This document shows, piece after piece, positions 14,340 to 62,817 of a stretch of DNA of 64,000 nucleotides (positions within the stretch are counted from its first letter, which is position 1; each line of letters begins with the position of its first letter). The notes under the pieces were generated by a model. It saw nothing but the letters and a program-made list of their open reading frames with translations. It ran no database searches and was not told the origin of the DNA. This stretch comes from Bacillota bacterium (GTDB lineage Bacteria; Bacillota; Sulfobacillia; JACIYH01). Location of the stretch: contig JASEFA010000004.1 of the NCBI GenBank assembly GCA_030019365.1, forward strand, positions 35,262 to 99,261. The letters are read 5' to 3'. Position numbers and translations under genes: made by a program.

Positions 14340-15896
14340 ATGGTGGGGTGGTCCGGCGTGTTCCGGCGAGGCGCCAGTGTGTGCCCGCAAGGACGGGGTG
14401 AAAGGGGATGGTGGGAGGTGGCGGTCGGAAGCGTGAGTTTGCGGGCCAAGCGGTATGCGGCCCGCCGGGCCATGGAGTGGCTGGTGGGGTACCTGCGGCG
14501 GGATCCGGAGCGGGCCGTCGACTCCATCCTCTCGTGGGGCAAGCGGCTGGCGGTGATGGAGGCGCACCGCCGCCAGGTAGAAGAGCTGGCGGTGACTTTG
14601 CGGGATAATCCCGCCATGATGCGGTTCGTGCGCCGGCTGGCGCTGGAGGTGCATCCCAACCAGCACCGGGGTGTGGTTTTCAACTGGTTCGTGAACAGCA
14701 TCCTGCTCGGCCTCCCGGTCCAGTACGCCCTGGCGGAGAGGCTGGGTCACGGGGTTCCGCACTTCATCCTGGTGGACCCCACGGAGGCGTGCAACCTGCG
14801 GTGCGTGGGGTGTTGGGCGGGCGAGTACGCGCAGTACCACACCATGCCGTTTGAACTCCTGGACAGGATCGTGACGGAGGCGAAGGAGCTGGGGATATAC
14901 TGGATAGTCCTGTCAGGCGGCGAACCGCTGCTGTACAAGCGTCTCTTCGAGCTGTTTGCCAGGCACCGCGATGTGGCCTTCATGGCTTTCACCAACGGCA
15001 CCCTCATCGACGACCGGACGGCTGATCGGATCCTTGAGGTGGGCAACTTCGTGCCCTGCATCAGCCTGGAGGGGTTCCGGGAGAGCACGGATGGGCGCCG
15101 GGGTCCGGGTGTGTTTGACCGCATATCGGCGGCCATGGATCGGCTCAAGGAGCGGAAGCTGATCTTCGGGACGTCGGTAACCATCACGCGGCACAACGTC
15201 GAGGAGATCACATCCGATGGCTTCATCGACTGGGTCATAGACAAAGGTGCGTTCTTCGGCTGGAGCTTCCACTACATCCCGGTGGGCCGCGATCCCGACG
15301 TGGAGCTCATGGTGACGCCGGAGCAGCGGGAGTATCTGGTCTATCGAGTGAGGGAAATCAGAACTTCCAAGCCGTACCTCTGGGCTGATTTCTGGAACGA
15401 CGGTTATCTCACGAACGGGTGCATTGCTGGTGGCCGCCGCTACTTCCACATTCTGGCCTCGGGGGAGGTTGAGCCCTGCGCTTTTGCCCACTTCTCGGTC
15501 GGGAACATAAAGGACCTGAGCCTGCGGGAAGTCCTGGCGAACCCCCTGTTCCGGGCCTACCAAAAGCGGCAGCCGTTCAACCCCAACCACCTGGCGCCCT
15601 GTCCCATAATTGACAACCCCCAGGCTCTGCGCGACATCGTGGCCGAATCGGGGGCGCGCCCGACGCACCCCGGTGCGGAGAGTGTGCTGCAGGGGCCGGT
15701 CGCTGCTTACCTCGACCGGCTGTCCCGGGAGTGGCGGGAGAGGGCCGAGGGGGTGCGGCGGCGCCTGGGGCTGGGTGATGTCCAGGTTGCGGCTTGCGAA
15801 CTAGCGGTGCCGGAATCTGCTCACGGCGGGGAGGCCGGGCAGGAGGAAGGCCCAGTTGTGGCCGCGGGGCACGGGGTGGAAGGACCGGGAAGCTGA
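14340..15896 (+). CDS. Radical SAM enzyme with C-terminal SPASM/twitch-like Cys-rich domain, substrate unknown; likely start ATG ~14472
   Basis: HFILVDPTEACNLRCVGCWAGEY holds the CxxxCxxC motif. The GGEPLL glycine motif is present. The C-terminal region has additional Cys (NGCIAGGRRYFHILASGEVEPCAFAHF...APCPII). Confidence 0.7.
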   Translation: MVGWSGVFRRGASVCPQGRGERGWWEVAVGSVSLRAKRYAARRAMEWLVGYLRRDPERAVDSILSWGKRLAVMEAHRRQVEELAVTLRDNPAMMRFVRRLALEVHPNQHRGVVFNWFVNSILLGLPVQYALAERLGHGVPHFILVDPTEACNLRCVGCWAGEYAQYHTMPFELLDRIVTEAKELGIYWIVLSGGEPLLYKRLFELFARHRDVAFMAFTNGTLIDDRTADRILEVGNFVPCISLEGFRESTDGRRGPGVFDRISAAMDRLKERKLIFGTSVTITRHNVEEITSDGFIDWVIDKGAFFGWSFHYIPVGRDPDVELMVTPEQREYLVYRVREIRTSKPYLWADFWNDGYLTNGCIAGGRRYFHILASGEVEPCAFAHFSVGNIKDLSLREVLANPLFRAYQKRQPFNPNHLAPCPIIDNPQALRDIVAESGARPTHPGAESVLQGPVAAYLDRLSREWRERAEGVRRRLGLGDVQVAACELAVPESAHGGEAGQEEGPVVAAGHGVEGPGS

Positions 15897-15953: not shown

Positions 15954-17039
15954 TTGGGCGGGGCGGGCCGGGTAGGGGTGGTCACCGATAGCTGCTCTGG
16001 TGTCTCTCCCGAGATGGCGCAGGCCCTGGGTATCGAGGTGGTTCCCCTCACGGTAATCTTCGGCGAGGAGGCCTTCCTGGACGGAGTGGATATCGATACT
16101 GCTGAGTTTTACGCGCGCATGGCGCGGGGGCCTGTGCTGCCGCGCACCTCGCAACCCTCGCCCGCCCGGTTCCTGGATGCCTTCTCGCGCCTAGCGGCTC
16201 AGGGGGCAAGCGGGGTGGTCGTGGTGACGGTGGCGGGTGCTCTGAGCGGTACTTACCAGTCGGCTTTGCGGGCAGCCGCGGACTTCTCCGGACTGCCGGT
16301 TGAGGTGGTGGATTCGGGCACCGCTTCGCTGGGGCAGATGTTCGCCGTGCTGGCGGCTGCCGAGGTTGCGCGCAAGGGGTCTGAAGTGGCGCAGGTGGTG
16401 CTCAGGGTGCGGGAAGTGGCGGGCAGGACTCGGCTGTATGGCGTGCTGGAAACCCTGGAGTACCTGCGGCTCGGGGGACGCATCGGTAGGGCCGCGGCGT
16501 GGACGGGCTCGCTCCTTCAGATCAAGCCCGTGCTGGCTCTTGGCAACGGGGACATCGTTCCGGTGGCCAGGCTGAGGACCAGGGCCCGGGCGGTGGAGTT
16601 CATGCTTTCCCGTGTGGAAGGGGACTTGCGTTCGGAGCCGGGTGGCACCTTGCGCATGGGTGTCGTGCACTCCGCCTGCCCTCGCGAGGCCGGTGAGCTG
16701 GCGGAAAAGGTAAGAGAGAGATTTGTGCCCGACGAACTGGTGGTATCGGAATTGACGCCGGTAATGGGTGCTCATGCCGGGCCGGGAGTGCTCGGGGTGG
16801 CCTTTTACCGCGACTGGTGCTGCGGGTCCGACTGGGAGTTACCGTCTGCCGGCGAGCGGCGGTGCCCTGCCGCGGTTCCCCAGGCGGGTGCCGGACGCGC
16901 CGTAACGCGGTGGCCCTGGGGCAGGCAGGAAAGTCCCTGTCGTTGGTCGAAGCAGTCGAATATAGGCATGGAAGCAACCGGGTCCGTTCGGGGCGTGGGT
17001 GCGGGGAGCTTGAGTAGGTGGCAGCGGGGGTGGGACTGA
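15954..17039 (+). CDS. DegV-family (fatty-acid-binding) protein; ORF reads ~75 codons past the expected DegV end
   Basis: VGVVTDSCSGVSPEMAQALGIEVVPLTVIF...GVAFYRD has DegV-like composition (established family features, recalled). The tail WCCGSDWELPSAGERRCPAA... is not DegV-like. Confidence 0.6.
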   Translation: MGGAGRVGVVTDSCSGVSPEMAQALGIEVVPLTVIFGEEAFLDGVDIDTAEFYARMARGPVLPRTSQPSPARFLDAFSRLAAQGASGVVVVTVAGALSGTYQSALRAAADFSGLPVEVVDSGTASLGQMFAVLAAAEVARKGSEVAQVVLRVREVAGRTRLYGVLETLEYLRLGGRIGRAAAWTGSLLQIKPVLALGNGDIVPVARLRTRARAVEFMLSRVEGDLRSEPGGTLRMGVVHSACPREAGELAEKVRERFVPDELVVSELTPVMGAHAGPGVLGVAFYRDWCCGSDWELPSAGERRCPAAVPQAGAGRAVTRWPWGRQESPCRWSKQSNIGMEATGSVRGVGAGSLSRWQRGWD

Positions 17040-17158: not shown

Positions 17159-18916
17159 ATGCGCAAGCTGGTGAGGGTCAATATGACCCAGCGGACCGTG
17201 ACTCTGGAGGATTTGCCCGAGAAGTACCGGTTCATGGGTGGGCGCTGGCTGACGTCGGCCCTGGTGGCCGATGAGGTGCCTCCCACGTGCCATCCCCTGG
17301 GGCCCAATAACCGGCTGGTGGTGGCCCCCGGCATGGTGACGGGGACGGCGGCTCCCAGTTCGGGGCGTGTGTCGGTGGGAGGCAAGTCTCCGCTCACCGG
17401 CGGCGTCAAAGAGTCGAATGCGGGCACGCCCGTAGCGCAGAGCCTTTCCAGGCTGGGAATCGCGGCTGTGCTGGTAGAAGGACAGCCCCGGGAGAAGGGG
17501 GCATTGTTTGTCCTCAGGCTGGGCAAGGGCGGAGGGGTACTTGAGCCGGCGGGGGACCTGGCGGGCCTGGGCATGTACGAGTTTGCTTCGCGTGTGCGGC
17601 AACGGTTTGGGGAGGTGGGCTTCATCGCCACCGGGCCAGCGGGTGAAAAGGGTATGGCCATGGCGGGGGTATGCTTCAACGACACCGAGTTTCGGCCGTC
17701 CCGCTATGCGGGCCGGGGCGGGCTGGGTGCCGTCATGGCGGCAAGGGGCCTGAAGGCCATCCTGGTGGACGATCAAGGTGCGCCGGGCGTTTCGCTTGCT
17801 AACCCGGATCTGTTCCGCCAGGGCCAGAGGAAACTCGCCGACGCCCTGCGCGAGCACCCCATCACCCGCCCGGGCGGCACTCTCAACTCCTTCGGCACGG
17901 CTGCCCTCATCAACGTGCTGAACGAGGCAGGAGGTCTGCCCACCCGGAACTTCAGTTCCGGCCGGTTCGAAGGAGCTGGGAGAATTGCCGGTGAGACCAT
18001 CGCGGAAACGGTGAAGGCGCGGGGCGGGCAGGGCAGGATGGGGCACGGTTGCCACCCAGGGTGCGTGATCCAGTGCAGCAACATCTGGGCAAGGCCGGAC
18101 GGGTCGGAGCACGTTTCCTGCCTGGAGTACGAATCGGTGTGGGCGCTGGGCGCCGATTGTGGTATAGACGACCTGGACGCCATAGCCGAGCTCATCTGGA
18201 TCTGCAACGATAGCGGCCTTGACACCATCGAAGCGGGAGTCACGCTGGGGGTGGCCATGGAAGCGGGTCTGCTGCCTTTCGGCGATGCCAGGACGGCTGT
18301 GGAGTTACTGAAGGAATGCGGCCGGGGGACGCCGCTGGGGCGCATCCTGGGTAACGGAGCGGCCTTTGCGGGTCGGGGGTTCGGGGTCACCCGGGTGCCT
18401 GTGGTGAAGGGTCAGGGGATGCCGGCGTACGAACCCCGTGCGGTGAAGGGGATTGGCGTCACCTACATGACTTCCCCCATGGGCGCGGACCACACTGCCG
18501 GCTACACCGTGGCCCCTGAGATTCTCTCGGTGGGAGGCAAGGCAGACCCGCTGGCCGCCGGGGGCAAGGCCAAGCTTTCTGCCGATCTGCAGGCTGCCAC
18601 CGCGTTCATCGACAGTACCGGATACTGCCTCTTCATCGCCTTTGCCGTCATGGACATTCCCAGCGGGTTCGAGGGCATGGTGGAGACCTGCAACGGCGTC
18701 CTGGGTACAGAGTGGACTGTGGCAGATGTGGCGGCCATTGGTGCCCGGATAGTGGCCATGGAACGGCGCTTCAACGAGGCGGCAGGGATTACCCGGGCCC
18801 AGGATCGCCCGCCTGAGTTCATGCGCTATGAACCCCTCCCGCCTCATAACCAGGTGTTCGATGTCTCCGACGAAGAGTTGGACCAGGTGGGAGTTCTGCT
18901 CGGGCAGGACAGGTGA
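17159..18916 (+). CDS. aor: Aldehyde:ferredoxin oxidoreductase family (tungsten-containing AOR)
   Basis: 585-aa protein with characteristic AOR N-terminal (MRKLVRVNMTQRTVTLEDLPEKYRFMGGRWLTSALV) and central/C-terminal regions. ATG 17159 is preceded by AAGGAGGTG at 6 nt. Confidence 0.8.
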   Translation: MRKLVRVNMTQRTVTLEDLPEKYRFMGGRWLTSALVADEVPPTCHPLGPNNRLVVAPGMVTGTAAPSSGRVSVGGKSPLTGGVKESNAGTPVAQSLSRLGIAAVLVEGQPREKGALFVLRLGKGGGVLEPAGDLAGLGMYEFASRVRQRFGEVGFIATGPAGEKGMAMAGVCFNDTEFRPSRYAGRGGLGAVMAARGLKAILVDDQGAPGVSLANPDLFRQGQRKLADALREHPITRPGGTLNSFGTAALINVLNEAGGLPTRNFSSGRFEGAGRIAGETIAETVKARGGQGRMGHGCHPGCVIQCSNIWARPDGSEHVSCLEYESVWALGADCGIDDLDAIAELIWICNDSGLDTIEAGVTLGVAMEAGLLPFGDARTAVELLKECGRGTPLGRILGNGAAFAGRGFGVTRVPVVKGQGMPAYEPRAVKGIGVTYMTSPMGADHTAGYTVAPEILSVGGKADPLAAGGKAKLSADLQAATAFIDSTGYCLFIAFAVMDIPSGFEGMVETCNGVLGTEWTVADVAAIGARIVAMERRFNEAAGITRAQDRPPEFMRYEPLPPHNQVFDVSDEELDQVGVLLGQDR

Positions 18917-18960
18917 GCCGGTCGCCTGGTGGGGTACGCCGAACAGGATGAAGCGGGTGG

Positions 18961-18985
18961 GGGGTTGCCGCTTAAGCGCAACCCC
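18961..18985 (+). terminator. GC-rich hairpin GGGGTTGC-cgcttaagc-GCAACCCC downstream of aor (no U-tract)
   Basis: Perfect 8-bp inverted repeat seen 45 nt after the aor stop. The loop itself is palindromic (GCTTAAGC). Confidence 0.35.
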
Positions 18986-19005
18986 CCACCTCGGAGGGAT
19001 TGGCT

Positions 19006-19437
19006 ATGCCGCTGGTGAGGGTGCGGCTATATGCTTCCTTGAGGGAATACGCCCCGGAGGGTTTCCGGAGCGAGGGCTTCACCGTGCAGCTTCCCCCGGC
19101 GAGCACTGTGGCTGACCTTTACGCGCGGCTGGGCCTGCCTGAGGAACAGGTCAAGCAGGCGTTCGTGAACGGCAGGCGGGCGGAACCCGACAGGGTGCTG
19201 GAGGACGGGGATGAGGTGGGGGTGTTTCCACCCATCGCCGGGGGAAGCGGGGAGGAGCGGAGCTGGCGTGCTCGCCGAGCGGGTGTACAGGGAGGATATC
19301 GAAGGGGGAGTCCTGCTTCACCGCGCACGCCCGGATCTGCGCAGGCTGTACGTGGAGTTGACCAGCCGGTGCCGGGGCGGATGCGTAGCATGTGTGAGGA
19401 GATCGTGGGACGAGCCCGTGGGGGATATGTCCGTTGA
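19006..19437 (+). CDS. MoaD/ThiS-like sulfur carrier (AOR-associated) whose Gly-Gly is not followed by a stop
   Basis: MPLVRVRLYASLREYAPEGF...EDGDEVGVFPPIAGG is a MoaD-type beta-grasp ending in GG at ~19248, but the frame stays open to 19437. RBS GGAGGGA is 7 nt before ATG 19006. Confidence 0.5.
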   Translation: MPLVRVRLYASLREYAPEGFRSEGFTVQLPPASTVADLYARLGLPEEQVKQAFVNGRRAEPDRVLEDGDEVGVFPPIAGGSGEERSWRARRAGVQGGYRRGSPASPRTPGSAQAVRGVDQPVPGRMRSMCEEIVGRARGGYVR

Positions 19438-20410
19438 CCTGTTGCGCGAGGTCATTGCCGGGGCGGTCCGCGAGTCCCAGCTGGAACGGGTCCACTTCGG
19501 GGGCATCGGTGAGCCCTTCCTCCACCCGGGCGTCATGGAAGCCATTGCTCTCGTCAAAGGGGCAGGGTTGAAGGTCACCATCTCCACGAACGGATCTGAT
19601 CTCAGGACGCTGGCGGGAGAGCTCGTCGCCATGCAGGTGGACGAGCTGGTCGTGTCCTGCGACAGCCCGGACCCCGGCCGGTACGGAGAGATCCGCGGCT
19701 CCTCGTTAGCTGCCTTGGAAGAAGGACTGGAGGCGCTGGGCCGGGCCAAGGCGCGAGCCGGCAGTGTTCTTCCTCGCCTGGTGCTGGAGTTTGTGGCCAT
19801 GCGCGGCAACCTGGCGGACCTGCGTGACATGCCCCGCTTCGCGAGGCGCTGGGGAGCGGCGTCCCTGCTGGTGACCAACCTGCTTCCTTACACTCGTGCC
19901 ATGGCCGGCGAGATTCTCTACACCGGTCCGAACGCACCCATGCGCCCCGCGGAAAGCGGCAGTCTGCGGCCTGATGCCTCCGCCCTGGTGTGGGCGGCTG
20001 CGGCCAGAGAGTGGTTCACCTGGGGCACGGTCGACCTTCCCCGCATGGCGTGGGGCGCGGCCCGCCGCTGCCGTTTCGTGGGGACTCAGGCGGCGGTGGT
20101 GGGCTGGGATGGCAAGGTGAGCTCGTGCATTCCCCTCTCGCACAATTACACCTTTTTCATCTTCGGCCAGCCCAAGTGTGTGCGGCGTTACACCCTGGGG
20201 GAGCTCGGGAGTCAGGATCTCTTGGCCATCTGGATGTCGGAAGAGTATGTGAAGTTCAGAAGCAGGGTGCGCCGTTACGATTTCCCCTCGTGCGTTGACT
20301 GTGCGCTGGGCGAGACCTGCGACTACCGGTCGGAGAACAGGGACTGCTGGGGAGGAGACCCTTCCTGCGCCGATTGCCTTTGGGCGCAGGACATCATCCG
20401 CTGTCCCTGA
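19211..20410 (+). CDS. Radical SAM/SPASM enzyme of the kind found with tungsten AOR genes (putative tungsten-cofactor oxidoreductase maturase); true start probably GTG ~19268
   Basis: YVELTSRCRGGCVACV holds CxxxCxxC. The C-terminus has multiple CxxC-type clusters (CIPLSH, CVDCALGETCDY, CADCLW). The conserved AOR / MoaD / radical SAM neighbourhood is established knowledge. Confidence 0.6.
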   Translation: MRWGCFHPSPGEAGRSGAGVLAERVYREDIEGGVLLHRARPDLRRLYVELTSRCRGGCVACVRRSWDEPVGDMSVDLLREVIAGAVRESQLERVHFGGIGEPFLHPGVMEAIALVKGAGLKVTISTNGSDLRTLAGELVAMQVDELVVSCDSPDPGRYGEIRGSSLAALEEGLEALGRAKARAGSVLPRLVLEFVAMRGNLADLRDMPRFARRWGAASLLVTNLLPYTRAMAGEILYTGPNAPMRPAESGSLRPDASALVWAAAAREWFTWGTVDLPRMAWGAARRCRFVGTQAAVVGWDGKVSSCIPLSHNYTFFIFGQPKCVRRYTLGELGSQDLLAIWMSEEYVKFRSRVRRYDFPSCVDCALGETCDYRSENRDCWGGDPSCADCLWAQDIIRCP

Positions 20411-20491
20411 GCCCTGGCCTCGGCGCCCCACGGAGGCAGGACCACAGACCACAGGGCAGCGCAGGGGAGAGTTGGGGCGGGAGGGAAAGCA

Positions 20492-21262
20492 GTGCACCCC
20501 ATAGCGTTTCGCGTAGGCGGCTTCGAGGTGTACACGTGGGGGATCCTGTTCGCGGCGGGCGTGCTGATCGGGGTCCTGGTGGCGGAGCGCAACGCCCGGC
20601 GCTTTGGTATGGCCCCGTACCTCTACCTGGAAGGTATCCCTTATGTGATCGTGGGGGCGATGGTGGGGGCGCGGCTGCTTTATGTGGCGGCGGAGTGGTC
20701 GTGGTACGCTGCCGACCCGCGGCGGCTGCTGTATTTTCGGGAGGGCGGGCTTTCCCTGTATGGGGGGCTTGCCGGCGGAGTGCTGGCGGCCTGGCTCGTC
20801 GCGCGGGCCCGAAAGGTGGGTGTGGCCCCGTACCTGGATGGGGGGAGCCCGGGCATCGCGCTGGCGACGGCCGTCAGCCGGGTGGGGTGCTTTCTGAATG
20901 GCTGCTGCTGGGGGGTCCTGACGGGTGGGACGTGGGGTGCAAGGACCCGGTTTGCTCCCGGTCTTCGCCACCCCGCTCAGCTGTATGAGGCGGCGCTGGA
21001 CCTGGCCCTGTTCGCCGTGTTGTGGATGCTGGGGCCCCGGCTGGCGCGGCTGAAGGGCCATGTGTTCCTGGCGTATCTGGGTGGCTATTCGCTGATCCGC
21101 TTTGGAGTCGAGTTTGTCAGGGATGTGCCGCACATCGCGGGGTGGCTGACGGTGACGCAGCCGCTGGCGCTGGTTGTGGCCCTGGCGAGCTTTGGTCTGA
21201 TGTGGTGGGGGAGGAAGAGGCAGCTTGATAGTTGCTGCTGGAAGGAGCCCGGCTCTGGGTAG
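20492..21262 (+). CDS. lgt: Prolipoprotein diacylglyceryl transferase
   Basis: VHPIAFRVGGFEVYTWGILFA... and SRVGCFLNGCCWG match the Lgt signature region. ~7 TM segments. Paralog at 51424. Confidence 0.8.
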   Translation: MHPIAFRVGGFEVYTWGILFAAGVLIGVLVAERNARRFGMAPYLYLEGIPYVIVGAMVGARLLYVAAEWSWYAADPRRLLYFREGGLSLYGGLAGGVLAAWLVARARKVGVAPYLDGGSPGIALATAVSRVGCFLNGCCWGVLTGGTWGARTRFAPGLRHPAQLYEAALDLALFAVLWMLGPRLARLKGHVFLAYLGGYSLIRFGVEFVRDVPHIAGWLTVTQPLALVVALASFGLMWWGRKRQLDSCCWKEPGSG

Positions 21263-21306
21263 CGGTGGTTGCTGGGGGAGACGCCTTGAATGAGGGGGTT
21301 GCCAGG

Positions 21307-22266
21307 ATGTCCGGCCCGTGCCGACGTGACTTTGATCCCACCTCCCTGTTCCGGAGGTACGAGGGGAACCCCATTCTGACCCGGGAAGACTGGCCCTATC
21401 CGGCAAATGCGGTCTTCAACCCGGGTGCCGTGGAGTGTGGTGGCCAGACAGTCCTCCTGGCCCGGGTCGAAGACATGAGGGGCTATTCGCACCTCACCGT
21501 TGCCAGGAGCCCGGACGGGAGGTCTGGCTGGGAGGTGTCCTCGCGGCCGGCCCTTGAGCCGGACCCCTCCTGCCTGGAGGAGCGCTGGGGCATTGAGGAC
21601 CCGCGGATAGTGTGGGTGGAGGAGCTGGGGGAGTATGCGGTGACCTGCGTGACCTTCTCCAGGGGAGGTCCCGTGGTCTCGTTGTACACCACCAGGGACT
21701 TTGTGGAGTTCAGGCGCCACGGGCCGCTTCTGCCGCCGGAGGACAAGGATGCCTCCCTCTTCCCGAGGCGGGTTGGCGGCCGGTTTGTGCTGATGCACCG
21801 GCCCATCATCAGGGGCGAAGCCCACATCTGGATGGCGTTTTCTCCCGATCTCAAGCACTGGGGGGACCACAGGATGGTGATACCCGCCAGGCCGGGTTCC
21901 TGGGACAGCTCGAGGGTGGGCCTGGGACCTCCTCCCATAGAAACGCCCCAGGGCTGGCTCGTGATGTACCACGGGGTGCGGGTGACGGCATCAGGCAGCC
22001 TTTACCGGGTAGGTCTTGCCCTGCTGGATCTGGACGAGCCCTGGAGGGTCATCCGGAGGAGCGAGGAGTGGGTATTCGGCCCCCGTTACAGGTATGAGCA
22101 CGTGGGGGACGTGCCGGGCGTGACTTTCCCGACGGGGGCGATCGTTGACCAGAGCACGGGGGAACTGAGGATATATTACGGCGCGGCCGACACGGCCATA
22201 TGTCTGGCCTTTGCTCACAAAGACGAGGTGCTCGAGTACATGAGTAGGTGTCGGTCCCCCGAGTAG
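21307..22266 (+). CDS. GH130-family glycoside phosphorylase-like protein (DUF377)
   Basis: MSGPCRRDFDPTSLFRRYEGNPILTREDWPYPANAVFNPGAV...IEDPRIVW...YYGAADTAICLA resembles the beta-propeller GH130 pattern (recalled). Confidence 0.65.
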   Translation: MSGPCRRDFDPTSLFRRYEGNPILTREDWPYPANAVFNPGAVECGGQTVLLARVEDMRGYSHLTVARSPDGRSGWEVSSRPALEPDPSCLEERWGIEDPRIVWVEELGEYAVTCVTFSRGGPVVSLYTTRDFVEFRRHGPLLPPEDKDASLFPRRVGGRFVLMHRPIIRGEAHIWMAFSPDLKHWGDHRMVIPARPGSWDSSRVGLGPPPIETPQGWLVMYHGVRVTASGSLYRVGLALLDLDEPWRVIRRSEEWVFGPRYRYEHVGDVPGVTFPTGAIVDQSTGELRIYYGAADTAICLAFAHKDEVLEYMSRCRSPE

Positions 22267-24632: not shown

Positions 24633-24732
24633 AGGATCGGGATTTCATGAACCTGTCGGGTTCCGCTGATCACCTCCTCCGGTCCCGCCCGGAGGGCTGA
24701 AGCCGCATGGCCAAGCCAGGAGTGGTTGGGGG

Positions 24733-25125
24733 GTGTCCCTGCCGGGCACGGCTTTATTGCCCGGGGAGCCGCACGCGCCGGCCTGTGACATGATCCGGGC
24801 GGGGGTGGCGGTGGCCCTGGCCACGGACTTCAACCCCGGCACCTGTCCCATCTCGTCCTTGCCTCTGGTCATGGGGCTGGCGTGTGCGGGGATGCGGATG
24901 GAGCCGGAGGAGGTTGTGGTGGCGGCGACTGTCAACGCCGCCCACGCGGCGGGTCGGGGTGAAGAGCTGGGCAGCCTGGAGGAGGGGAAGCAGGCGGACG
25001 TGGTGGTCTTTGCTGTGCCCGGCTACGGGCACGTTCCCTCCCGTATGGGAGGCGCCCCTGTCAGTCGGGTGGTGAAGCGGGGGAAGGTAGTGGTGGGGCG
25101 GGGCCGGCTGGTCGACGAGCGGTAA
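24733..25125 (+). pseudogene. 3' fragment of an amidohydrolase-family gene (imidazolonepropionase-like C-terminus)
   Basis: ...AVALATDFNPGTCPISS...GSLEEGKQADVVVFAV... is the C-terminal 130 aa of a ~400-aa metal-dependent amidohydrolase. The N-terminal ~270 aa are absent, and the glycosyltransferase gene ends 100 nt upstream. Confidence 0.5.
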
Positions 25126-25373
25126 GGTTTTGCCGGCCGAGGCCAAAGACGTAACTCGGCTTGACACGTGGACAGCCATCGCAGAACGGGGCGTTGATGG
25201 TACAATCGGTGCAAAGGTGCCGGTGCGGGAGGTCGGTGGTTCACTGGTGCCGTGAGCCCGAGGGTGGAGTCTGACCGGAGCGCCCCCTGGGAGGCACCGA
25301 CTGTGCCCGTGAGCACGCAAGGGAGAATCCAAGGGCTCCGGGGCGCTCCGCCGGCTCGAGGAGGGCGTTAGAG

Positions 25374-25600
25374 ATGGCAGTGATGTACGAACGGTGCGCG
25401 GGCCTGGATGTCCCAAGAAGATGATCACCGCATGCCTTATCGTACCTGGCCCGGCAAGCCGAACAAAGAGACGCGGACCTTGCGGACGATGACCGGGGAC
25501 ATCCTCATGCTTTCGGACTGGCTCTCCCGGGCCGGGTGCACTCACGTGGCCATGGAGAGCACGGGGGTGTACTGTTCCGCCGAAAATCGAGATCACCCGC
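25374..25600 (+). pseudogene. Frameshifted N-terminal remnant of an IS110-family transposase
   Basis: MAVMYERCAGLDV (frame a), KKMITACLIVPGP (frame b) and PNKETRTLRTMTGDILMLSDWLSRAGCTHVAMESTGVY (frame c) together match the IS110 DEDD-domain N-terminus. No intact ORF remains. Confidence 0.45.
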
Positions 25601-25692
25601 TCTTAGGCGGCAGCCTCCAGGTCCTTCAGTTCGACCTGATAGCCGAGCGATTCGAGCCGTTTCACCAGACGGCGGGAGACAGCATCGCGGTT

Positions 25693-25753
25693 TGTGTGCT
25701 GTCTCGCATTGATTTAGCCTGAAGGGGCTGGTTTGTCTCACATTGAGTTGGCC
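25693..25753 (+). repeat. Left terminal inverted repeat plus internal transposase-binding-site-like repeat of the element
   Basis: TGTCTCGCATTGA at ~25699-25711 and TGTCTCACATTGA at ~25734-25746, seen directly. Confidence 0.5.
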
Positions 25754-26498
25754 GAAGAGGAAAAACCTCTCGTTGAGGGGAATTGCCCCGCTGGGTTTCA
25801 CCGAACCCAGAAAAGGCATGGCCTCTTGCCGACACACCACCCACGCAAGAGGCCTGCCTGCACCTGGTGGAACCCAGTCTGCATTGATCATCGTAACGAA
25901 CCTGGGATCTGACGTCAACGAGTACATAAGTTGGTGGGAGCGGTACAGGGCCGGGGATGAGGAGGCCCGCCGGGCCCTGCCCAGAAAGTGCCCAAAGTGC
26001 AGGCACAGACTGCATAGCCACGGTTGGTACTGGCGCAAGATCGGCGTCCAGATCCACAGGCTACGCTGCCCCAGGTGCCGGAGAACCCACGCCGTGCTCC
26101 CGAGCTTCCTCGCTCCCCACCGGCCCTGCCTGATGGCCCTGGTCGACCGGGCATTCCGCCTCCGCCTGCAGCGATGCTCCTGGCGCCAGGTGGCCGACAA
26201 CATCACAGAGGTTTCCCTCCCCACCCTGCAGCGCTGGCTACGCCGCATCCGCGACCTCGCGGAAACCGCGGTGGCCATACTCTCCCGGGATGCCCGCCGG
26301 CTTGACCCCGAACTCGACCTGGACACCCTCCTGCGCCCCTTCACGGGGGACCAACTGAAGCTGCTTGACGCCGCCATCGCCGCCTTCTACCTCGCCTGCC
26401 AGCGCCCAAGCCCCCACCTGGCATTCCCTACCGGCCAGCCCCTCGAGTTTGCCAACGTGCACCTCATCAACGCCGAACCCATCGGCGTCTGGTTCTGA
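25743..26498 (+). CDS. Transposon-associated zinc-ribbon protein (CxxC...H...CxxC; DUF6431/TniQ-like accessory), likely start ATG ~25818
   Basis: PRKCPKCRHRLHSHGWYWRKIGVQIHRLRCPRCRRTHAVLPSFLAPH is a treble-clef-type zinc ribbon typical of transposition accessory proteins (recalled). Confidence 0.45.
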   Translation: MSWPKRKNLSLRGIAPLGFTEPRKGMASCRHTTHARGLPAPGGTQSALIIVTNLGSDVNEYISWWERYRAGDEEARRALPRKCPKCRHRLHSHGWYWRKIGVQIHRLRCPRCRRTHAVLPSFLAPHRPCLMALVDRAFRLRLQRCSWRQVADNITEVSLPTLQRWLRRIRDLAETAVAILSRDARRLDPELDLDTLLRPFTGDQLKLLDAAIAAFYLACQRPSPHLAFPTGQPLEFANVHLINAEPIGVWF

Positions 26499-26592
26499 CC
26501 ACCCCGGCAGGGGGAGCCCCGTCCCTTTCCCGCCCAGATGTTGCCGCCTGACCCAGTAAGCGGTTCGGACGGAAGACAGCGCCTGGGTCGGG

Positions 26593-28314
26593 GTGGTTCC
26601 CGTACCGGAACCAGGAAGACATTCGCCGTGCGGAAACCCCCCTTTGGGGCGCCCGTGTCCCACCAAACCTGAAGTTTTCGGCTACCGGCCCCCGGTGGTA
26701 GGCTCGGGACCGGGAGGCACCGGAGGGGTGGACGACGAGGAACGCAGGGTGGAAGTGGCCCTGTTCCGCTACGGTTGCATCGCGGAGCTCTTGCAGAGGA
26801 AGCTCCCCCGGGGCGAGCAGGCCCGCATCTTAGAGCGCCTGGCCGCCCAGGAGTGGGAGGGACCCGGCGGGGAGAAGGTGCGACTCTCCGTCTCCACGCT
26901 CAAATCCTGGCTGGCCCGCTACCGCAAGGGGGGCTTCGAGGCCTTGAAGCCCAAACCCCGGGAGGACCGGGGCAGGCCGCGGGCGCTGGACCCCGCCCTC
27001 ATCGAGCGGGCCGCAAAGCTCAAGCGGGAGCTCCCCGCCCGCTCCGTCACCCAGGTCATCCGCATGCTTGAGGCATCCGGGGTAGCCAAAGGGTCAGTCT
27101 CCCGGGCCACCCTGCACCGGCACCTGCGCGCCCTGGGCCTCACCCGCAGGCAGCCGGGGTCGCGCCGGGTCTACCAGCGCTTCGAGCGGGAGGAGCCCGG
27201 GGAACTGTGGCAGATCGACCAGGCCGACGGCATCTTCCTCCCCGACCCCAGGCGGCCGGGGAAGTTCCGCAAGACCGTGTTGTTCCTCGTCATCGACGAC
27301 CACAGCCGCTACTGCCCCCACGCCCAGTTCTACCCGGACGGCAAGATGCCGCGCCTTGAGCACTGCATGCGCCAGGCCCTGGCCAAGGCCGGCATCCCGC
27401 AGGCCATCTACGTGGACCGGGCCAGCATCCACGTCTCCCGGCACTTCCGCGCCGCCTGCGCCGCGCTGGGCATCCGGGTCATCCTGGGCCGCAGGAGGAA
27501 TCCGGCCGCGCGCGGGAAGGTCGAACGGTTCAACCAGACCGCGCAGAACGAGGTCTACCCGGAGCTGCGCCTTTTGGTGGCCCGGGAAGAGGTCAAGACG
27601 GTGGAGGAGGCCAACGCCTACTTTTGGGCGTGGCTGGAGGAGGACTACCACCGAAGGCCCCACTCGGAGACGGGCGAGCCTCCCCGGGACCGCTACTTCC
27701 GCAAGCCGCCCCGACTGCCCGACCCCGTGGCCCTGGCCAACCTCTTCCTCACGCGGGAGACGCGCACGGTGCGGAAGGACGCCACCATCCGCATCGGGGG
27801 CAACCGCTACCAGGTGGACCCCGAACTCAGAGACCGGAAAAAGGTCGAGGTGCGCTACGACCCCTTCGACCTCACCCGGGTGGAGGTGTGGGTGGACGGC
27901 CGCTTCTACCAGGTGGCGGTCCCCCTGGTCCTCAACAAAACCTCCCTTTCCCGCAGCACGGAGACCGCCCCGGCACCCACCCAGCTCAGCATGAGCTACC
28001 TCAAGCTCCTGCGCGCCCAGCACGACCGCCGCCTCGCCGAGGAAGTCGAGCGCCTGCGCTTTTCCGACTTGCCCAAAAACCCGCTTCCCGGGGGCACGGG
28101 CGGAGTGGCCCCGTTCCTTGCCCTGCTGCACCTGGGCCTGGGCCGCGACCTCACCGAGGCCGAAACCCACGAGGCCCGCGAGTTCTGGGCCACCTACGGC
28201 CCCCTGGACCTGAAGCTCTGCCGGGAGGCCCTGGAACGGGCCTGCCGCGACCTGGGCACCGGGCGGCACATCTCGAGCTACCTTGAGGAAATCAGGAAAC
28301 GGGCACGGAGGTGA
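26593..28314 (+). CDS. tniA: DDE transposase, Mu/TniA-like (rve integrase core plus Mu-transposase C-terminal-like region)
   Basis: N-terminal HTH region, then ...WQIDQADGIFLPD...LFLVIDDHSRYCP...IYVDRASIHVSRHF...GKVERFNQT has the D, D, E spacing of the retroviral-integrase fold. A C-terminal beta-rich region follows. The start may be internal (~26731). Confidence 0.8.
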   Translation: MVPVPEPGRHSPCGNPPLGRPCPTKPEVFGYRPPVVGSGPGGTGGVDDEERRVEVALFRYGCIAELLQRKLPRGEQARILERLAAQEWEGPGGEKVRLSVSTLKSWLARYRKGGFEALKPKPREDRGRPRALDPALIERAAKLKRELPARSVTQVIRMLEASGVAKGSVSRATLHRHLRALGLTRRQPGSRRVYQRFEREEPGELWQIDQADGIFLPDPRRPGKFRKTVLFLVIDDHSRYCPHAQFYPDGKMPRLEHCMRQALAKAGIPQAIYVDRASIHVSRHFRAACAALGIRVILGRRRNPAARGKVERFNQTAQNEVYPELRLLVAREEVKTVEEANAYFWAWLEEDYHRRPHSETGEPPRDRYFRKPPRLPDPVALANLFLTRETRTVRKDATIRIGGNRYQVDPELRDRKKVEVRYDPFDLTRVEVWVDGRFYQVAVPLVLNKTSLSRSTETAPAPTQLSMSYLKLLRAQHDRRLAEEVERLRFSDLPKNPLPGGTGGVAPFLALLHLGLGRDLTEAETHEAREFWATYGPLDLKLCREALERACRDLGTGRHISSYLEEIRKRARR

Positions 28315-29120
28315 GCACCGTGTACGAGAGCTTCTTCGGCTTCACCCGCACGCCATTTGGCCGGGACCTTCCCCCGGACCAGCTCTTTCCCTCCCAGGAC
28401 CACCTGGAGGCGCTCGCCCGGCTGAACTGGGCCGTCATGCAGCGTGGCATGGCCCTCCTCACCGGGGACGTGGGCTCGGGCAAGTCCACCTGCCTGCGGG
28501 CCCTGCGCGCCGCCCTGGACCCCATCAGGTCACGCTGGCTGTATCTGCCCAACCCCCTCCTTCCCGCCCGCGGGCTGTACCGCCAGCTCCTCCTGGCCCT
28601 GGGGGTAGAGCCCCGGTATCACAAGTCGGACACCGTCAACCAGCTCGCCGGGACCCTGTGGTCGGTGTTCGAGCAGGGCAAGACCCCGGTGGTGGTCATC
28701 GACGACGCCCACCTCCTCCCGGAGGCTACCCTGCAGGAACTCAGGCTGCTCACCAACTTCGACATGGACAGCGCCTGCCCCATGGCGCTCATCCTCGTCG
28801 GCCAGACCCCCCTGCGGGACAGGCTCCGGCTCTCCTGCTACGACCACATCACCCAGCGGCTCACCGTGCGGTACCACATGCGCGGGCTCACCGCCCCGGA
28901 GACCAGGGAGTACATCGCCCACCACCTAAAGGCCGCCGGGCGTACCTCGCCCCTCTTCACACCGGAGGCCATCGAGGAAATCTTCCAGTACGCCCGCGGC
29001 ATCCCCAGGCGGGTCAACCACGTGTGCGCCAATTCCCTGCTCGCCGCCTTCATCGAGCAGAAGGAGCTGGTCGACCAAAAGCTGGTACTACGGGTGATCC
29101 AGGACCTAAACGGCAACTGA
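28311..29120 (+). CDS. tniB: AAA+ ATPase transposition helper (TniB/ExeA-like, AAA_22)
   Basis: LLTGDVGSGKST (Walker A) and VVVIDDAHLL (Walker B). 4-nt overlap with the transposase. Confidence 0.75.
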   Translation: MSTVYESFFGFTRTPFGRDLPPDQLFPSQDHLEALARLNWAVMQRGMALLTGDVGSGKSTCLRALRAALDPIRSRWLYLPNPLLPARGLYRQLLLALGVEPRYHKSDTVNQLAGTLWSVFEQGKTPVVVIDDAHLLPEATLQELRLLTNFDMDSACPMALILVGQTPLRDRLRLSCYDHITQRLTVRYHMRGLTAPETREYIAHHLKAAGRTSPLFTPEAIEEIFQYARGIPRRVNHVCANSLLAAFIEQKELVDQKLVLRVIQDLNGN

Positions 29121-29162
29121 ACTCGGATCGGCAGCTGCCCTTCCCCTGGGGCAGCCTTCTTC

Positions 29163-30368
29163 GTGGCCCGAAAAAGTTATCTCAATCCGAGACAAGCCGG
29201 TCAAAACAATGTGAGACGGCACACCATGACCAGGGGGCCCGCTCTTACAGGAAAGAGCCTTCTGTCTGGCCTTTTGCGGTGCGCAAGGTGTGGCCGTAAG
29301 CTGCACGTCACCTATACGGGGGCCAATGGCAACGTGGTCCGCTATGCGTGCAACAGCGCATCAGTGAACCACGGTGCGGAACGGTGCATCTCCTTCGGGG
29401 GGCTAGCGGTTGACCGGGCCGTTGAACGTGAGTTACTGAAGGTGGTTGAACCTGCGGCGGTCCAGGCAGCCCTGGATGCGCTGGCCGAGCTCGAGGCCTC
29501 ACGCGACGAAAGGCGCGCTGCCCTGGAACTTGCCTTGCGGCAGCCCCGGTATGAGGCGGACCGGGCACGGCGGCAGTACGATGCGGTGGAGCCGGAGAAC
29601 CGCTTGGTGGCCTCAGAGCTTGAGCGACGCTGGAATGCGGCTCTTGAGGAAGTGAGGCGGCTCGAGGAAGAACTCTGCCGTCTGCTCCCATCGGATGCGA
29701 ACCTGAGTGAGGACGAGCGAGAGGAACTTCTTTCCCTCTCCGAGGACCTGCAGAGCGTTTGGAACAATCCTCTTACAGACATGCGTACGAAGAAGCGCCT
29801 GGTGCGGACGGTGATCGAGGAGATCATCGCTGACGTGGACGAGGAGAGGGCTGTGGTAGAGTTGGTGATCCGCTGGGCGGGCGGGTACCATACCCGGCTC
29901 CTCGTAAAGAAGAACCGCACCGGCGAGCACCGCTTCCGGACGGACCGGAAAGCGGTCGAGGTGGTGCGCGAGTTGGCCAAGGTGACCCGTGACCGGGACA
30001 TCGCGGCCATCCTGAACCGGCTGGGGATAAAAACGGGCAAGGGTAACACCTGGACCGAGGCCAGGGTGAGATCTCTCCGGAACGAGCACGGGATACCGGT
30101 GTTTACAGACGACGGAGAAAACCCAAAGTGGCTCACGATGAAGGATGCTGCCTCCCTCCTGGGGGTCAGCCCGACGTCAGTGCATCGGCTCATTCTGGAG
30201 GGAGTACTCCCCGCCAGGCAGGTAGTACCTTGCGCGCCCTGGATGATCGAAAAACACTCGTTGGAATCGGAAGCGGTTAGGCAGGCGGTGGCAGGCATCA
30301 AACAGGGCGGGAAACGTCCGCTACCACACCACCCCGATCAGCAAAAGCTAGATTTGAAGCCGATGTAG
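29163..30368 (+). pseudogene. C-terminal fragment of a large serine recombinase (zinc-ribbon and coiled-coil regions only; catalytic resolvase domain missing)
   Basis: LLRCARCGRKLHVTYTGANGNVVRYACNSA...GAERC is the recombinase zinc beta-ribbon, followed by a long coiled-coil and C-terminal region. The first ~20 codons of the ORF are read from the transposon right end. The recombinase-derived sequence begins at about 29226. Confidence 0.55.
29177..29226 (-). repeat. Right terminal inverted repeat plus internal repeat of the element
   Basis: The reverse complement contains GTCTCACATTG and GTCTCGGATTGAG. It pairs with the left end. Confidence 0.5.
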
Positions 30369-30380
30369 CGAGGTGGTGCA

Positions 30381-30776
30381 TCATGTCGTGGGATCGGTTG
30401 GGCCCACGATTATGACCCCCTGGTGAGCCCGGATCCAATTGCCCGTGGCCAGGCTCCGCATGACCGCGCGGTCAAGGCCGCGGGGCACCTGGTAGTCGAT
30501 GTCCTCCATGCACGCGGGCAGCCTCAGCTTGGCCGCCTTCAGCAACCTGGCCAGGCGCCGGTCCTGCCTGGAACTCCATTCGCGATCCACCAGCAGGCCG
30601 AAGCGCTCCTCGAAGGAAAGACCCTGCACGTCGGGTTCCTGTGCCTGGGCCAGGAAGGCCTCCGCCATCCCGTCAAGCCGCATCTCCCGCAGCCTGGCAA
30701 CCGTCTGCTGGTCAAGCATGCGATGACCCCTCCCCGCTGTAGTACGAGGGGCCCCGCAGGTTGGGGTGCTCCCCAA
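30381..30776 (-). pseudogene. istB: IS21-family IstB helper ATPase, N-terminal fragment truncated at the Walker A region
   Basis: [25 protein letters not shown]...LSFEERFGLLVDREWSSRQDRRLARLLKAAKL...LATGNWIRAHQGVIIVGPT then stop. The break coincides with the serine-recombinase fragment end. Confidence 0.6.
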
Positions 30777-31569
30777 CCGCCCGAGCCTCCGGCGGGGACT
30801 CGAGCGGTAACCTGTCCAGCTTGTTCTCCAGGATCGACTTCACACTCCGGTAAGAGATGGCGCCGGTGGCCAGGGCCCTTCTTGAGGCGGCCTCCAGCCG
30901 CTCCTCGCCGTAGCGCTTGCCCAACCGCATGATCCCCAGGCAGGACCGGTAGCCCTGCTCGGGGTGGGGCTTGGACTCCATGATCCTCCGCACCAGCCGC
31001 CCCGTGTTCTCGCCCGCCTTCTCAGCCCATCGGACAAGGCGATCCGGGGTCCACTCGAGATGCTCCCGGTGGGAATGCGGGCGGTGCTCGGGATCGGTCA
31101 CGAACTGCCCCTTGCGGTAGCTGCGCGGGTGGCTGGCCACGCGGCGCCCCTTGTGCAGGACCTCCACCGTGGTGGCCGTGTAGCGCACCTCCACCTGCTC
31201 CCTGATGAGCCCGTGAGGGACGCTGTAGTAATTGCCTTCCACCTCCACGTGGTAGTCGATGTTCACCCGGGCCTTCTTCCACTGGGCGAACTCGTACCTC
31301 TGCGGCGGCAGGGGTTTGAGGGCCGCCTTCTCCACCGTCTCGTACAGGGTGCGGCGGCTCCCCTCCATCTTCTGAAACGGCGCGTCGTTGAGCTTTTCGA
31401 GCAGTTCCCTGATCGCCTGGTTCACCTCCGCCAGGCTGAAGAAGGTGCGGTGGCGCAGGGCGGCCAGGATCCACCGCTCCACCACCTGCACCCCCGCCTC
31501 CACCTTGGCCCGGTCGCGGGGGTGCTTGGGCCGGGCGGGGATCACCACAGCCCCGTAGTGCTCCGCCAT
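30712..31569 (-). pseudogene. istA: IS21-family IstA transposase, C-terminal part only (N-terminal HTH and first catalytic residues missing)
   Basis: Begins within the catalytic core (...[22 protein letters not shown]...) and continues through the conserved IstA C-terminal region. The stop overlaps the istB start, as in IS21. Confidence 0.6.
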
Positions 31570-32633
31570 CTCAGCTTATCCCGACGTCAAGATAACAGGA
31601 GTTCGTCGAGTACTTTGGGTCGGACGTGGTGGTTGTGCCGCCGGGGGTGGTCGCCGAGACACTGGGGTCTTTCTTGGAGTGGTGGAACCTGCGGCTGCTC
31701 GAAGGGATGTCCGCTGAGGAGCGGCGGCGGGCCCTGGCGCAGGGGACTCGGCCCCGCACGAGGGTCCCGGAGGGATTGCTGGACTGCGAGACGGTGGGGA
31801 TCGTGATGGATCCTGAGGAGGGATTGAACTTTTACGCCGAGTTGGCAGGTTCCTTGAGGTATTCGCCAAGCCGGAATCGTTCAGCGCCCAAGAGCGGCGC
31901 GACGTGGTGATGCGGTACCTCTGGAGCAACAGCATCTCGCCGCTGCCCTTCCGCAAGGTGGTGGAGAGGTATCCGGAGAATGCCCGGCTGGTGTTCGGTG
32001 AGATTTTCGGGAAGGACGCCTGGGACAACGAAAAGGACCTGGCTTCCCTGATGCGCAAGTACAAGGGGGTCTTTCTGAAGCGGAAGCCGCTGCCCGGCTT
32101 CATTCCGGTTGCCGCTGATGCCGTCGGCGGTGTAGCGGCCAAGCGGGTTCCGCCGTCCAGGCCTCGTCGGCGGGCAGGACCGCGGAGATGAAGAGCCGCG
32201 GAGACAGTGTGGGACTACCCGGAGGCACGGAGGTCAGGGGCGTGAACCCGGTCCTGCGCGTCCTCATAGAGGTGGTGGCGGAGGCCCAGATTAGGCGGCG
32301 CGATCCGCCCGAGGCGGAGGAGATCCTGGTTTCGCTGCTGGGCCCCGGTGGGGGTGCGAATGCGGAGACGAGGCAGGTGGCAGGGAAACTGTTGGCCGAG
32401 ATCCGAAGCGGTACCACCGGCTAGTAATGTGATGACCCCGGGTGGGAGGGGTAAGCAGGGGAGGACCCCGAACTCTGGTGTGCCCGGGGTGGTGCCCTGT
32501 CTCCCGGGGGGAAGCTCCTGCGAAGAACCGCACTGTGCCAGGTAGGAGGCCATGGCAGCTCTCGGGCCGGCAGGTACTTGTTTGATGGGGCTCTCTTGAG
32601 CGCAGAAACCGGTGTGATACACTACGAGGTGAG

Positions 32634-36949: not shown

Positions 36950-36975
36950 GAGTGGGTTTCACGACCCACTCTTTG
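36950..36975 (+). terminator. Hairpin GAGTGGGT-ttcacg-ACCCACTC followed by TTTG
   Basis: Perfect 8-bp stem seen ~200 nt downstream of the SDR gene and ~90 nt upstream of rimP. A weak T-tract follows. Confidence 0.3.
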
Positions 36976-37063
36976 CGCGTATCGGCGCAGGTGCCCAAAG
37001 CGGGTAGGTCGGGGGTCGGCCGCTCCTGCGGCAGGCCCAGTTTTTTGGGGGGCCTGAGCGGAG

Positions 37064-37534
37064 GTGAGCGGCGTGAAGCGAGGGGAGCTGGAGGCTGAGG
37101 TGGCAGGCATGGCCCGCCAGGTCGCGGCCCCCATGGGGCTGTCCGTGGTGGATGTGGAGTTTTCCCCGCGGGGGAGACGGTCGCTGCTGCGGGTGATCCT
37201 GGATAGGCCCGGGGGTATCCTGCTCGACGAGTGCGCGCGGGTGAGCGAGGAGCTGAGCCACATGCTGGACGCGGCCGACCTCATCCCGGGGACCTACGTC
37301 CTCGAGGTGTCTTCGCCCGGGCTGGACCGGGTGCTGCGCCGGGATGAGGAGTTCGCCATCTTCCGGGGGCGCCGGGTGGCCGTGCACACCTACGCACCGG
37401 TGCAGGGGCAGAAGCGCCTGGAAGGCACGCTCCTGGGCCTGGAGGAAGACGGGGTTCATCTGGAAATGGACGGACAGGAGGTGCTGGTCCCCCGCCAGCA
37501 GGTAGCCAGGGTGCACCTGGTGGCAGAGATCTGA
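37064..37534 (+). CDS. rimP: Ribosome maturation factor RimP
   Basis: Typical RimP (LSVVDVEF...RRSLLRVILDRPGGILLDECARVSEELS...LEVSSPGLDR) located directly upstream of nusA. Confidence 0.8.
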   Translation: MSGVKRGELEAEVAGMARQVAAPMGLSVVDVEFSPRGRRSLLRVILDRPGGILLDECARVSEELSHMLDAADLIPGTYVLEVSSPGLDRVLRRDEEFAIFRGRRVAVHTYAPVQGQKRLEGTLLGLEEDGVHLEMDGQEVLVPRQQVARVHLVAEI

Positions 37535-37546
37535 GGAGGGCCCGAT

Positions 37547-38593: not shown

Positions 38594-38886
38594 AGCGCCG
38601 CCACGTCCCCATGCGCATGTGCGTGGGTTGCCAGGAGATGAAGCCGAAGCGGGATATGGTGCGCATAGTACGCACCCCCGAAGGCGAGGTGCTGGTGGAT
38701 CCCACGGGCAAGAAGTCGGGGCGGGGGGTGTACGTCTGCCCCGACCACGGGTGTGTGGAGAAGGCGGTGAAGACCAGGAGGTTGGAGAAGGCCCTGGGCA
38801 GAGAGATGTCCCCGGAGGTGCTGGAGACCGTGCGCCTGAAGGTGCGCGAGAGCCCCGGTGCCGCTTCAGGATGCCTGCCCCATTGA
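38590..38886 (+). CDS. ylxR: YlxR-family (DUF448) RNA-binding protein
   Basis: [55 protein letters not shown]; GTG start overlapping the nusA stop. The classic nusA-ylxR-infB order holds, with no L7Ae gene between. Confidence 0.7.
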
Positions 38887-38902
38887 TTTCGGAGGTGTGT
38901 GG

Positions 38903-42076
<3,174 letters not shown>

Positions 42077-42097
42077 CCGGCGCGGGGGTGAGGGGTT

Positions 42098-42376: not shown

Positions 42377-42392
42377 ACGGAGGGTCGCAGGG

Positions 42393-62730: not shown

Positions 62731-62817
62731 GCAGGGTGCTGCGGCGCTTCGGGCCGCAGCCGCCGGTCTCCCCGTCGGCCCGCGCCCGGGTCGGATAAGT
62801 GAATGGAGGTGTGAGGA

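Follow-up and report, generated by a model that had tools for sequence, protein, structure and literature searches.

A MoaD-like gene without a stop codon after its Gly-Gly, between the AOR and radical SAM genes of a Bacillota bacterium

Genes for MoaD-type proteins linked to aldehyde:ferredoxin oxidoreductase (AOR) were described by Iyer, Burroughs & Aravind, 2006 as a mobile cluster for tungsten-cofactor supply (PMC1779556). Thermococcus kodakarensis has such a trio in AOR tk1066, UblC tk1065 (TK1065) and radical SAM tk1064; deletion of ublC there leaves AOR activity at about 54% and FOR activity undetectable in sulfur-poor medium, and the three ubiquitin-like proteins (Ubls) of this organism are partly redundant (PMC11323500). 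The same trio lies at positions 17159-20410 of the DNA discussed here, a 64,000-nucleotide stretch of contig JASEFA010000004.1 from a Bacillota bacterium (assembly GCA_030019365.1), called the window below. In it, the open reading frame (ORF) of the MoaD-like protein runs on past the Gly-Gly of its domain and into the radical SAM gene.

Extended carriers are known from other systems, QbsE/QbsD being a case in which the carrier is processed after Gly-Gly by a JAMM-type protease. MoaX, the fused MoaD-MoaE of M. tuberculosis, is active only after cleavage past the Gly-Gly (PMC4326299), and DRJAMM cleaves the DrMoaD-MoaE of D. radiodurans (PMC8832034). A literature search combining MoaD-like or JAMM with AOR found nothing. 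For the window's gene we favour, as the probable explanation, a lineage-specific absence of the stop after Gly-Gly, with translation running on into the radical SAM gene in its -1 frame, the product being the domain plus an unselected tail.

The trio and the frame beyond Gly-Gly

The elements of the locus, all on the + strand, are as follows.

17159-18916, + strand: AOR, tungsten-type aldehyde:ferredoxin oxidoreductase, 585 amino acids (AA); Pfam AFOR_N, AFOR_C
18954-18993, + strand: GC-rich hairpin in the AOR-MoaD spacer; fold of the 94 nucleotides 18917-19010 at -51.5 kcal/mol, z = -3.7 against shuffles
19006-19245, + strand: MoaD/ThiS-like beta-grasp domain, 80 AA, ending FPPIAGG; Pfam ThiS and Ub-Mut7C, NCBIfam moaD_arch below cutoff
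19246-19437, + strand: read-through tail of the MoaD-like ORF, 63 codons plus TGA; the spacer and the radical SAM 5' region in the -1 frame
19249-19257, + strand: Shine-Dalgarno-like GGGGAGGAG for the radical SAM gene, read from the sequence; 10 nucleotides upstream of GTG 19268, inside the region coding for the MoaD tail
19268-20410, + strand: homolog of the radical SAM/SPASM "tungsten cofactor oxidoreductase maturase", 380 AA; TIGR04317

The ORF of the MoaD-like protein opens at TTG 19000, with its likely true start at ATG 19006, 7 nucleotides after GGAGGG at 18993-18998; including the extension, the gene occupies 19006-19437. The domain ends ...GVFPPIAGG, with the Gly-Gly encoded at 19240-19245, and both Pfam matches (ThiS, E 6.3e-11; Ub-Mut7C, E 6.6e-12) stop there, as does the region of the first 80 residues matched, below cutoff, by NCBIfam moaD_arch/SAMP1. 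A ThiS/MoaD-type beta-grasp domain is thus present; its family profile matches solved MoaD/SAMP structures, and AlphaFold2 with the family alignment predicts the fold confidently over residues 1-78 (predicted local distance difference test, pLDDT, 87-98). The domain retains every family position that is invariant or nearly so, and the Gly-Gly is strictly conserved though internal.

No stop follows it. The frame stays open over 63 further codons (19246-19434) until TGA 19435-19437, giving a product of 143 AA in which the Gly-Gly forms residues 79-80 and is not the C-terminus. The missing stop had been pointed out in a preliminary description of this DNA and can be read directly from the letters; the extension of about 60 codons given there is real, its exact length being 63.

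The tail looks like DNA that codes in another frame. GC content at codon positions 1/2/3 is.73/.46/.79 in the MoaD domain and.68/.52/.78 in the AOR; the tail DNA gives.75/.70/.55 in the MoaD frame, as non-coding sequence would, and.70/.49/.77 in the radical SAM frame, as coding sequence would, so that the coding signal passes from the one frame to the other at about 19240-19270. Within the overlap, a diverged strain (L001, assembled from ERR14373512) differs from the window at 19336, 19363 and 19381; all three changes are third-position and synonymous for the radical SAM protein, and all three are non-synonymous for the tail. The 63 residues are rich in Arg, Gly and Pro and are predicted to be disordered (pLDDT 38-56, AlphaFold2), and an exhaustive phmmer search through 1.84 billion representative proteins yielded for them no homolog from beyond their own lineage, the only match being P0001 from that lineage.

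The length of the tail follows from the rarity of off-frame stops in a genome of 67% GC. Among 33 well-behaved genes of the window, stops make up 1.0% of the codons in the equivalent off-frame (position 3 of the previous codon with positions 1-2); the median run there is 42 codons long, and the probability of a run of at least 56 codons is 0.40. The tail would be best explained as an unselected by-product of read-through into the next gene, with no new functional module. Candidacy as a conserved domain, or as a substrate of the SPASM enzyme in the manner of ribosomally synthesised and post-translationally modified peptides, was rejected: it is an orphan among those 1.84 billion representatives, and the relatives' tails are unrelated to it.

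Elsewhere in the window an ORF of 1844 codons without a Pfam match (36959-42493, - strand) lies opposite nusA (37547-38593) and infB (38858-42076), antisense to both. A spurious frame free of stops, it is typical of this GC-rich genome and shows how cheap such frames are in it.

The radical SAM protein matches TIGR04317 with E 1.9e-105 over profile positions 2-349 of 349, and both Pfam Radical_SAM and SPASM match it. Its score of 352.8 bits lies below the curated NCBI cutoff of 380; the near full-length match nonetheless supports the AOR-associated subfamily to which it had been assigned. The cysteines of the invariant columns are present, both in the CxxxCxxC motif (C35/C39/C42) and in the C-terminal SPASM region (C268, C287, C342, C345, C351, C360, C367, C370, C379). 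The gene lies 352 nucleotides downstream of the AOR in the same orientation.

As for its start, the mechanical ORF opens at ATG 19211, and it is not until residue 42 of that translation that the match to TIGR04317 sets in. The N-terminus read from GTG 19268, MLAERVYREDIEGG...PDLRRLYVE, aligns residue for residue from Met1 with the closest orthologs, which begin MIRESVYKEEIEGA... and MNQRLAYKEETEGA..., and a gene caller gave exactly this 380-AA product (P0032, 100% identical) on an identical contig, L065. GTG 19268 is therefore most likely the start, 22 nucleotides after the Gly-Gly. The gene-gene overlap then becomes 19268-19437, 170 nucleotides; the overlap of 19211-19437 previously given depended on ATG 19211, which is probably not a real start.

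Judged by its sequence, the radical SAM gene is intact. It differs from that of L001 by 10 non-synonymous and 12 synonymous changes; these include a Cys>Arg in L001, which was considered as a sign of decay and set aside, since the column concerned varies in the family and no invariant cysteine is missing. The window encodes Ser at residue 286 (20123-20125), a position at which the family almost always has Pro (GKVSSCIPL against GGVSPCYAL); L001 has the Pro. In L001 (759-1742) the gene caller shortened the protein to 327 AA, with a start after the stop of the MoaD tail and the loss of CxxxCxxC, an annotation artefact caused by the 170-nucleotide overlap.

The AOR ORF opens at GTG 17141, has its likely start at ATG 17159 and ends at 18916; matches to AFOR_N (E 9.6e-58) and AFOR_C (E 1.2e-78) place the protein in the AOR family, and its counterpart in the relative L002 is also 585 AA long. 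Tungsten is its presumed metal. The MoaD-like gene follows on the same strand after a spacer of 89 nucleotides (18916 to ATG 19006), and the co-oriented order AOR, MoaD/ThiS-like, radical SAM/SPASM recurs in L006, L007, L020, L036 and L066. Of the 57 species-representative loci of the ortholog survey, 18 have AOR immediately upstream on the same strand (within 600 nucleotides), and 40 have it within 4 kb. Gene order, the TIGR04317 match and the literature (PMC1779556, PMC11323500) all bear out the recognition of the trio as a known neighbourhood.

In the AOR-MoaD spacer, the near-perfect hairpin at 18954-18993 (arms GGTGGGGGGTTGC...GCAACCCCCCACC) abuts the MoaD Shine-Dalgarno sequence with its 3' arm. 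Without a T-run, it does not qualify as a canonical terminator; its role could lie in setting the AOR:MoaD expression ratio or in stabilising the 3' end of the AOR mRNA. An Rfam scan of the window at the gathering threshold (covering, for example, the Moco riboswitch) gave zero matches.

Relatives and competing explanations

Of the 57 species, 38 have a MoaD-like protein ending in Gly-Gly and a stop, 16 have unconserved tails of 1-21 AA and three have fusions. In the fusions the MoaD-like domain lies N-terminal to a full MoeA (L026, 4001-5497; L038, 4001-5500) or to a rhodanese (L024, 4001-4669; also P0027), and the Gly-Gly is internal. Tails and fusions are enriched at a GC content of 0.60 or more, with 13 of 23 loci against 6 of 34 below it (Mann-Whitney p = 9e-4), and the tails of the relatives share neither length nor sequence. 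Trio loci from Moorellaceae and other Clostridia (L006, L007, L020, L036) have Gly-Gly followed by TAA or TGA; the radical SAM gene starts after a further 20-45 nucleotides, a spacer that contains a Shine-Dalgarno sequence. The nearest relatives all lack the stop directly after Gly-Gly: L003-L005 have a tail of 9 AA, L066 (the same trio, in a locus of 66% GC) ends GG-DA-stop, and L002 (9112-9756, P0002) has a second MoaD-like domain in tandem, its first Gly-Gly being internal. This distribution shows that post-Gly-Gly sequence is tolerated in the AOR-linked MoaD-like family, mostly in GC-rich genomes. A stop after Gly-Gly in the orthologs had been named beforehand as the mark of a simple error; two-thirds of them do have it, but the rest of the family has tails, so that the window shows a lineage-specific absence and not an error.

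Stop-codon loss is thus the best fit among the three explanations offered in the preliminary description, which also named a carrier needing proteolytic unmasking and a sequencing error. The MoaD-like gene has no stop after Gly-Gly in this lineage, and by this account ribosomes would go on through the 22-nucleotide spacer and, in the -1 frame of the radical SAM gene, through 170 nucleotides of that gene until the frame first meets a stop, at 19435-19437. They would make the 80-AA beta-grasp domain followed by a 63-AA disordered, unselected tail, and translation of the radical SAM protein would begin separately, at GTG 19268 with a Shine-Dalgarno sequence of its own. The domain may still carry sulfur for the tungsten pterin of the neighbouring AOR, with the tail either cut off behind Gly80 by a protease whose gene lies elsewhere, as for MoaX and DrMoaD-MoaE, or tolerated because housekeeping MoaD copies would be redundant with it; the partial Ubl redundancy of T. 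kodakarensis would explain a relaxed pressure for a clean Gly-Gly-stop.

Several points weigh against this account. The tail is three times as long as the longest non-domain tail (21 AA) among the 57 species representatives, and the frame test has only three substitutions to draw on. Synonymous divergence (dS) among the relatives is near saturation, and the ratio of non-synonymous to synonymous rates (dN/dS) does not date selection relative to the loss of the stop. A search for the JAMM/MPN motif, which is a motif test only, found it neither in the window's 64 kb nor in any of 64 related loci, and neither an E1 (MoeB/ThiF) nor MoaE or MoeA was found by Pfam among the annotated ORFs of the window. 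The MoaD-like protein is presumably made, and its tail may be removed.

The main rival, which we consider unlikely, holds that the carrier is decaying or inactive: with no free Gly-Gly carboxylate it could be neither adenylated nor thiocarboxylated, and it would be a dead remnant, a housekeeping MoaD supplying the molybdopterin sulfur. Such a view would accord with the solved homologs, in every one of which the family profile ends on the last residue of the chain and the Gly-Gly is terminal, and with the lack of a processing protease nearby in the motif search of the window and the 64 loci. It would also accord with the partly redundant Ubl carriers of T. kodakarensis, where AOR keeps about 54% of its activity without UblC (PMC11323500), and with the way in which tails track GC content, as neutral stop loss would predict. 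Against it, the domain keeps every invariant residue and has not a single substitution against L001. Against the tail-bearing L003, L002 and L066, its dN/dS is 0.23-0.27 (Nei-Gojobori), values that are rough with dS near saturation; they suggest purifying selection on the domain among relatives that all have post-Gly-Gly sequence. A third of the family, moreover, has tails or fusions and still conserves FPPIAGG, which speaks for tails being compatible with function.

The identity with L001 extends over 366 nucleotides (18970-19335), taking in the 3' arm of the hairpin, the whole MoaD domain and the junction, at an overall divergence of 1.7%. The scan-statistic probability of such a stretch is about 0.03, and a comparable run of 355 nucleotides is found at 20249-20603. 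A metagenome scan for intermediate relatives that might date the stop loss gave only matches at 37-39% identity; the GTDB representatives scanned do not include the window's own species.

One more speculative possibility, to which we give somewhat less weight than to an inactive carrier, is that the AOR-linked MoaD-like subfamily acts as a non-covalent chaperone or scaffold for insertion of the tungsten cofactor into AOR, or is matured by a Gly-Gly-specific protease that is not of the JAMM type. The idea that no free thiocarboxylate is needed is prompted by the post-Gly-Gly tails and fusions in about a third of the family and by the lack of a JAMM protease nearby. If it is true, the 63-AA tail would be the extreme case that makes it testable.

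It seems improbable that the tail is a selected pro-peptide, that is, a functional C-terminal mask that regulates carrier activation and is removed by a dedicated JAMM/MPN+ protease, as in QbsE/QbsD and MoaX. Processing after Gly-Gly has its precedents (PMC4326299, PMC8832034), the Gly-Gly here is strictly conserved despite being internal, and the MoeA and rhodanese fusions of the same family bury theirs as well. The tail, however, has no coding signature in its own frame, all of its changes against L001 are non-synonymous, it has no homolog elsewhere, and the tails of the relatives differ from it in length and sequence. A JAMM/MPN protease nearby, which had been suggested as a thing to look for, did not turn up: the motif HxH-x(6-14)-S/T-xx-D, sought in the coding-like ORFs of the window and in the 64 related loci, gave no genuine match, the sole hit in the window being a chance one in PNPase, and no protease was found among the Pfam-annotated neighbours of the trio. 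Of the earlier proposal of an extended carrier that needs proteolytic unmasking, the extension therefore stands and unmasking may yet occur; what is missing is the signature of a selected peptide and the JAMM/MPN motif.

A sequencing or assembly error that deleted the stop or added a frameshift, for which the homopolymer- and GC-rich CCGGGGGAAGCGGGGAGG at the junction might speak, is very improbable and the earlier suggestion of it is refuted, as the junction is the same in two further assemblies -- L065 (Logan assembly, SRR23186780), 100% identical to window 19151-21519 over 2369 nucleotides, junction included, and the diverged L001, 98.3% identical with 33 differences over 1.9 kb and the same 143-AA product -- and as the nearest relatives also lack the Gly-Gly-stop. 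Programmed +1 ribosomal frameshifting after Gly-Gly into a MoaD-radical SAM fusion, suggested by the +1 position of the radical SAM frame relative to the MoaD frame and by the Shine-Dalgarno-like GGGGAGGAG that follows the Gly-Gly, is hardly credible and was rejected: the junction has neither an in-frame stop nor a slippery sequence of a known kind, a ThiS/MoaD domain is absent from all of the 120 best radical SAM homologs, and free-standing orthologs align with the N-terminus of the radical SAM protein as read from its own start codon.

The rest of the window

Upstream of the trio, Pfam identifies a DUF169 protein, an iron-sulfur (FeS) domain protein, a cupin, a second radical SAM/SPASM protein and DegV; downstream lie Lgt, GH130 and a glycosyltransferase, with a region rich in insertion sequences beyond. 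The second radical SAM/SPASM gene and the DegV gene do not belong to the AOR neighbourhood in the relative L002. Features of note are the following, those from 24670 to 31575 forming a region scarred by mobile elements.

14340-15896, + strand: second, unrelated radical SAM/SPASM protein; best NCBIfam matches NirJ2/AhbD-like, far below cutoff
15954-17039, + strand: DegV-family gene, directly upstream of the AOR
20492-21262, + strand: Lgt (prolipoprotein diacylglyceryl transferase; Pfam), directly after the radical SAM gene
24670-25122: amidohydrolase C-terminal fragment
26560-28311: Mu-type transposase
28287-29117: TniB-like AAA ATPase
29121-30365: recombinase zinc-ribbon/helix-turn-helix protein
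30384-30839, - strand: truncated IstB
30715-31575, - strand: Mu-transposase C-terminal fragment
51403-52215, + strand: second apparent Lgt paralog, judged by eye from the translation
62815-63132, + strand: DsrC-like protein; Pfam E 8.6e-40

Between 2080 and 8501 there is what looks by eye like an arsenic/thiol-redox cluster, with an ACR3-type efflux pump, ArsR, small thioredoxin-like proteins, CcdA-like proteins and permeases with a "CSCS" motif. The DsrC-like gene, which follows a small ferredoxin-like ORF (by eye) and precedes a membrane protein without a Pfam match, hints at sulfur or sulfite metabolism in the organism.

Comparison with known systems

The anomaly reads as an ordinary, GC-driven annotation oddity in a known gene neighbourhood. 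It carries a lesson for annotation: in GC-rich genomes a lost stop can create long, reproducible and meaningless C-terminal extensions and gene overlaps that mislead gene callers. The AOR-linked MoaD-like family also accepts post-Gly-Gly sequence unusually often, which raises the question of how, or whether, its C-terminus is exposed while the tungsten cofactor is matured.

With the AOR-linked MoaD family and UblC (TK1065), the window's protein shares its small MoaD/ThiS gene between AOR and radical SAM genes and the conserved C-terminal motif of FPPIAGG type, and a role in tungsten-pterin supply for AOR is presumed by analogy. It departs from them in having its Gly-Gly internal, with 63 residues after it, and in the lack of E1, MoaE and MoeA among the annotated ORFs of the window.

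The radical SAM protein resembles TIGR04317 in its near full-length match, its CxxxCxxC and SPASM cysteines and its adjacency to AOR, and homologs at 45-57% identity bear that name; it is unlike the family in scoring below the cutoff and in sharing the first 170 nucleotides of its gene, in a different frame, with the gene upstream. TIGR04317 homologs in many Chloroflexota and Deltaproteobacteria have an AbrB-like N-terminal extension that the window's protein lacks. In homologs of about 395 AA (P0038, P0043, P0058, P0064, P0072 and others) this is a stretch of about 25 AA that resembles an AbrB/SpoVT swapped hairpin, with P0058 and P0064 carrying a PF04014 flag; the stretch is absent from the Bacillota relatives as well.

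Like MoaX, DrMoaD-MoaE and QbsE/QbsD, finally, the window's carrier is a MoaD-type beta-grasp domain followed by sequence whose removal thiocarboxylate chemistry would require. In those systems, however, what follows the Gly-Gly is a conserved domain or a short defined peptide for which cleavage or the protease has been demonstrated, whereas the window's tail appears to be an orphan that arises when the next gene is translated out of frame.

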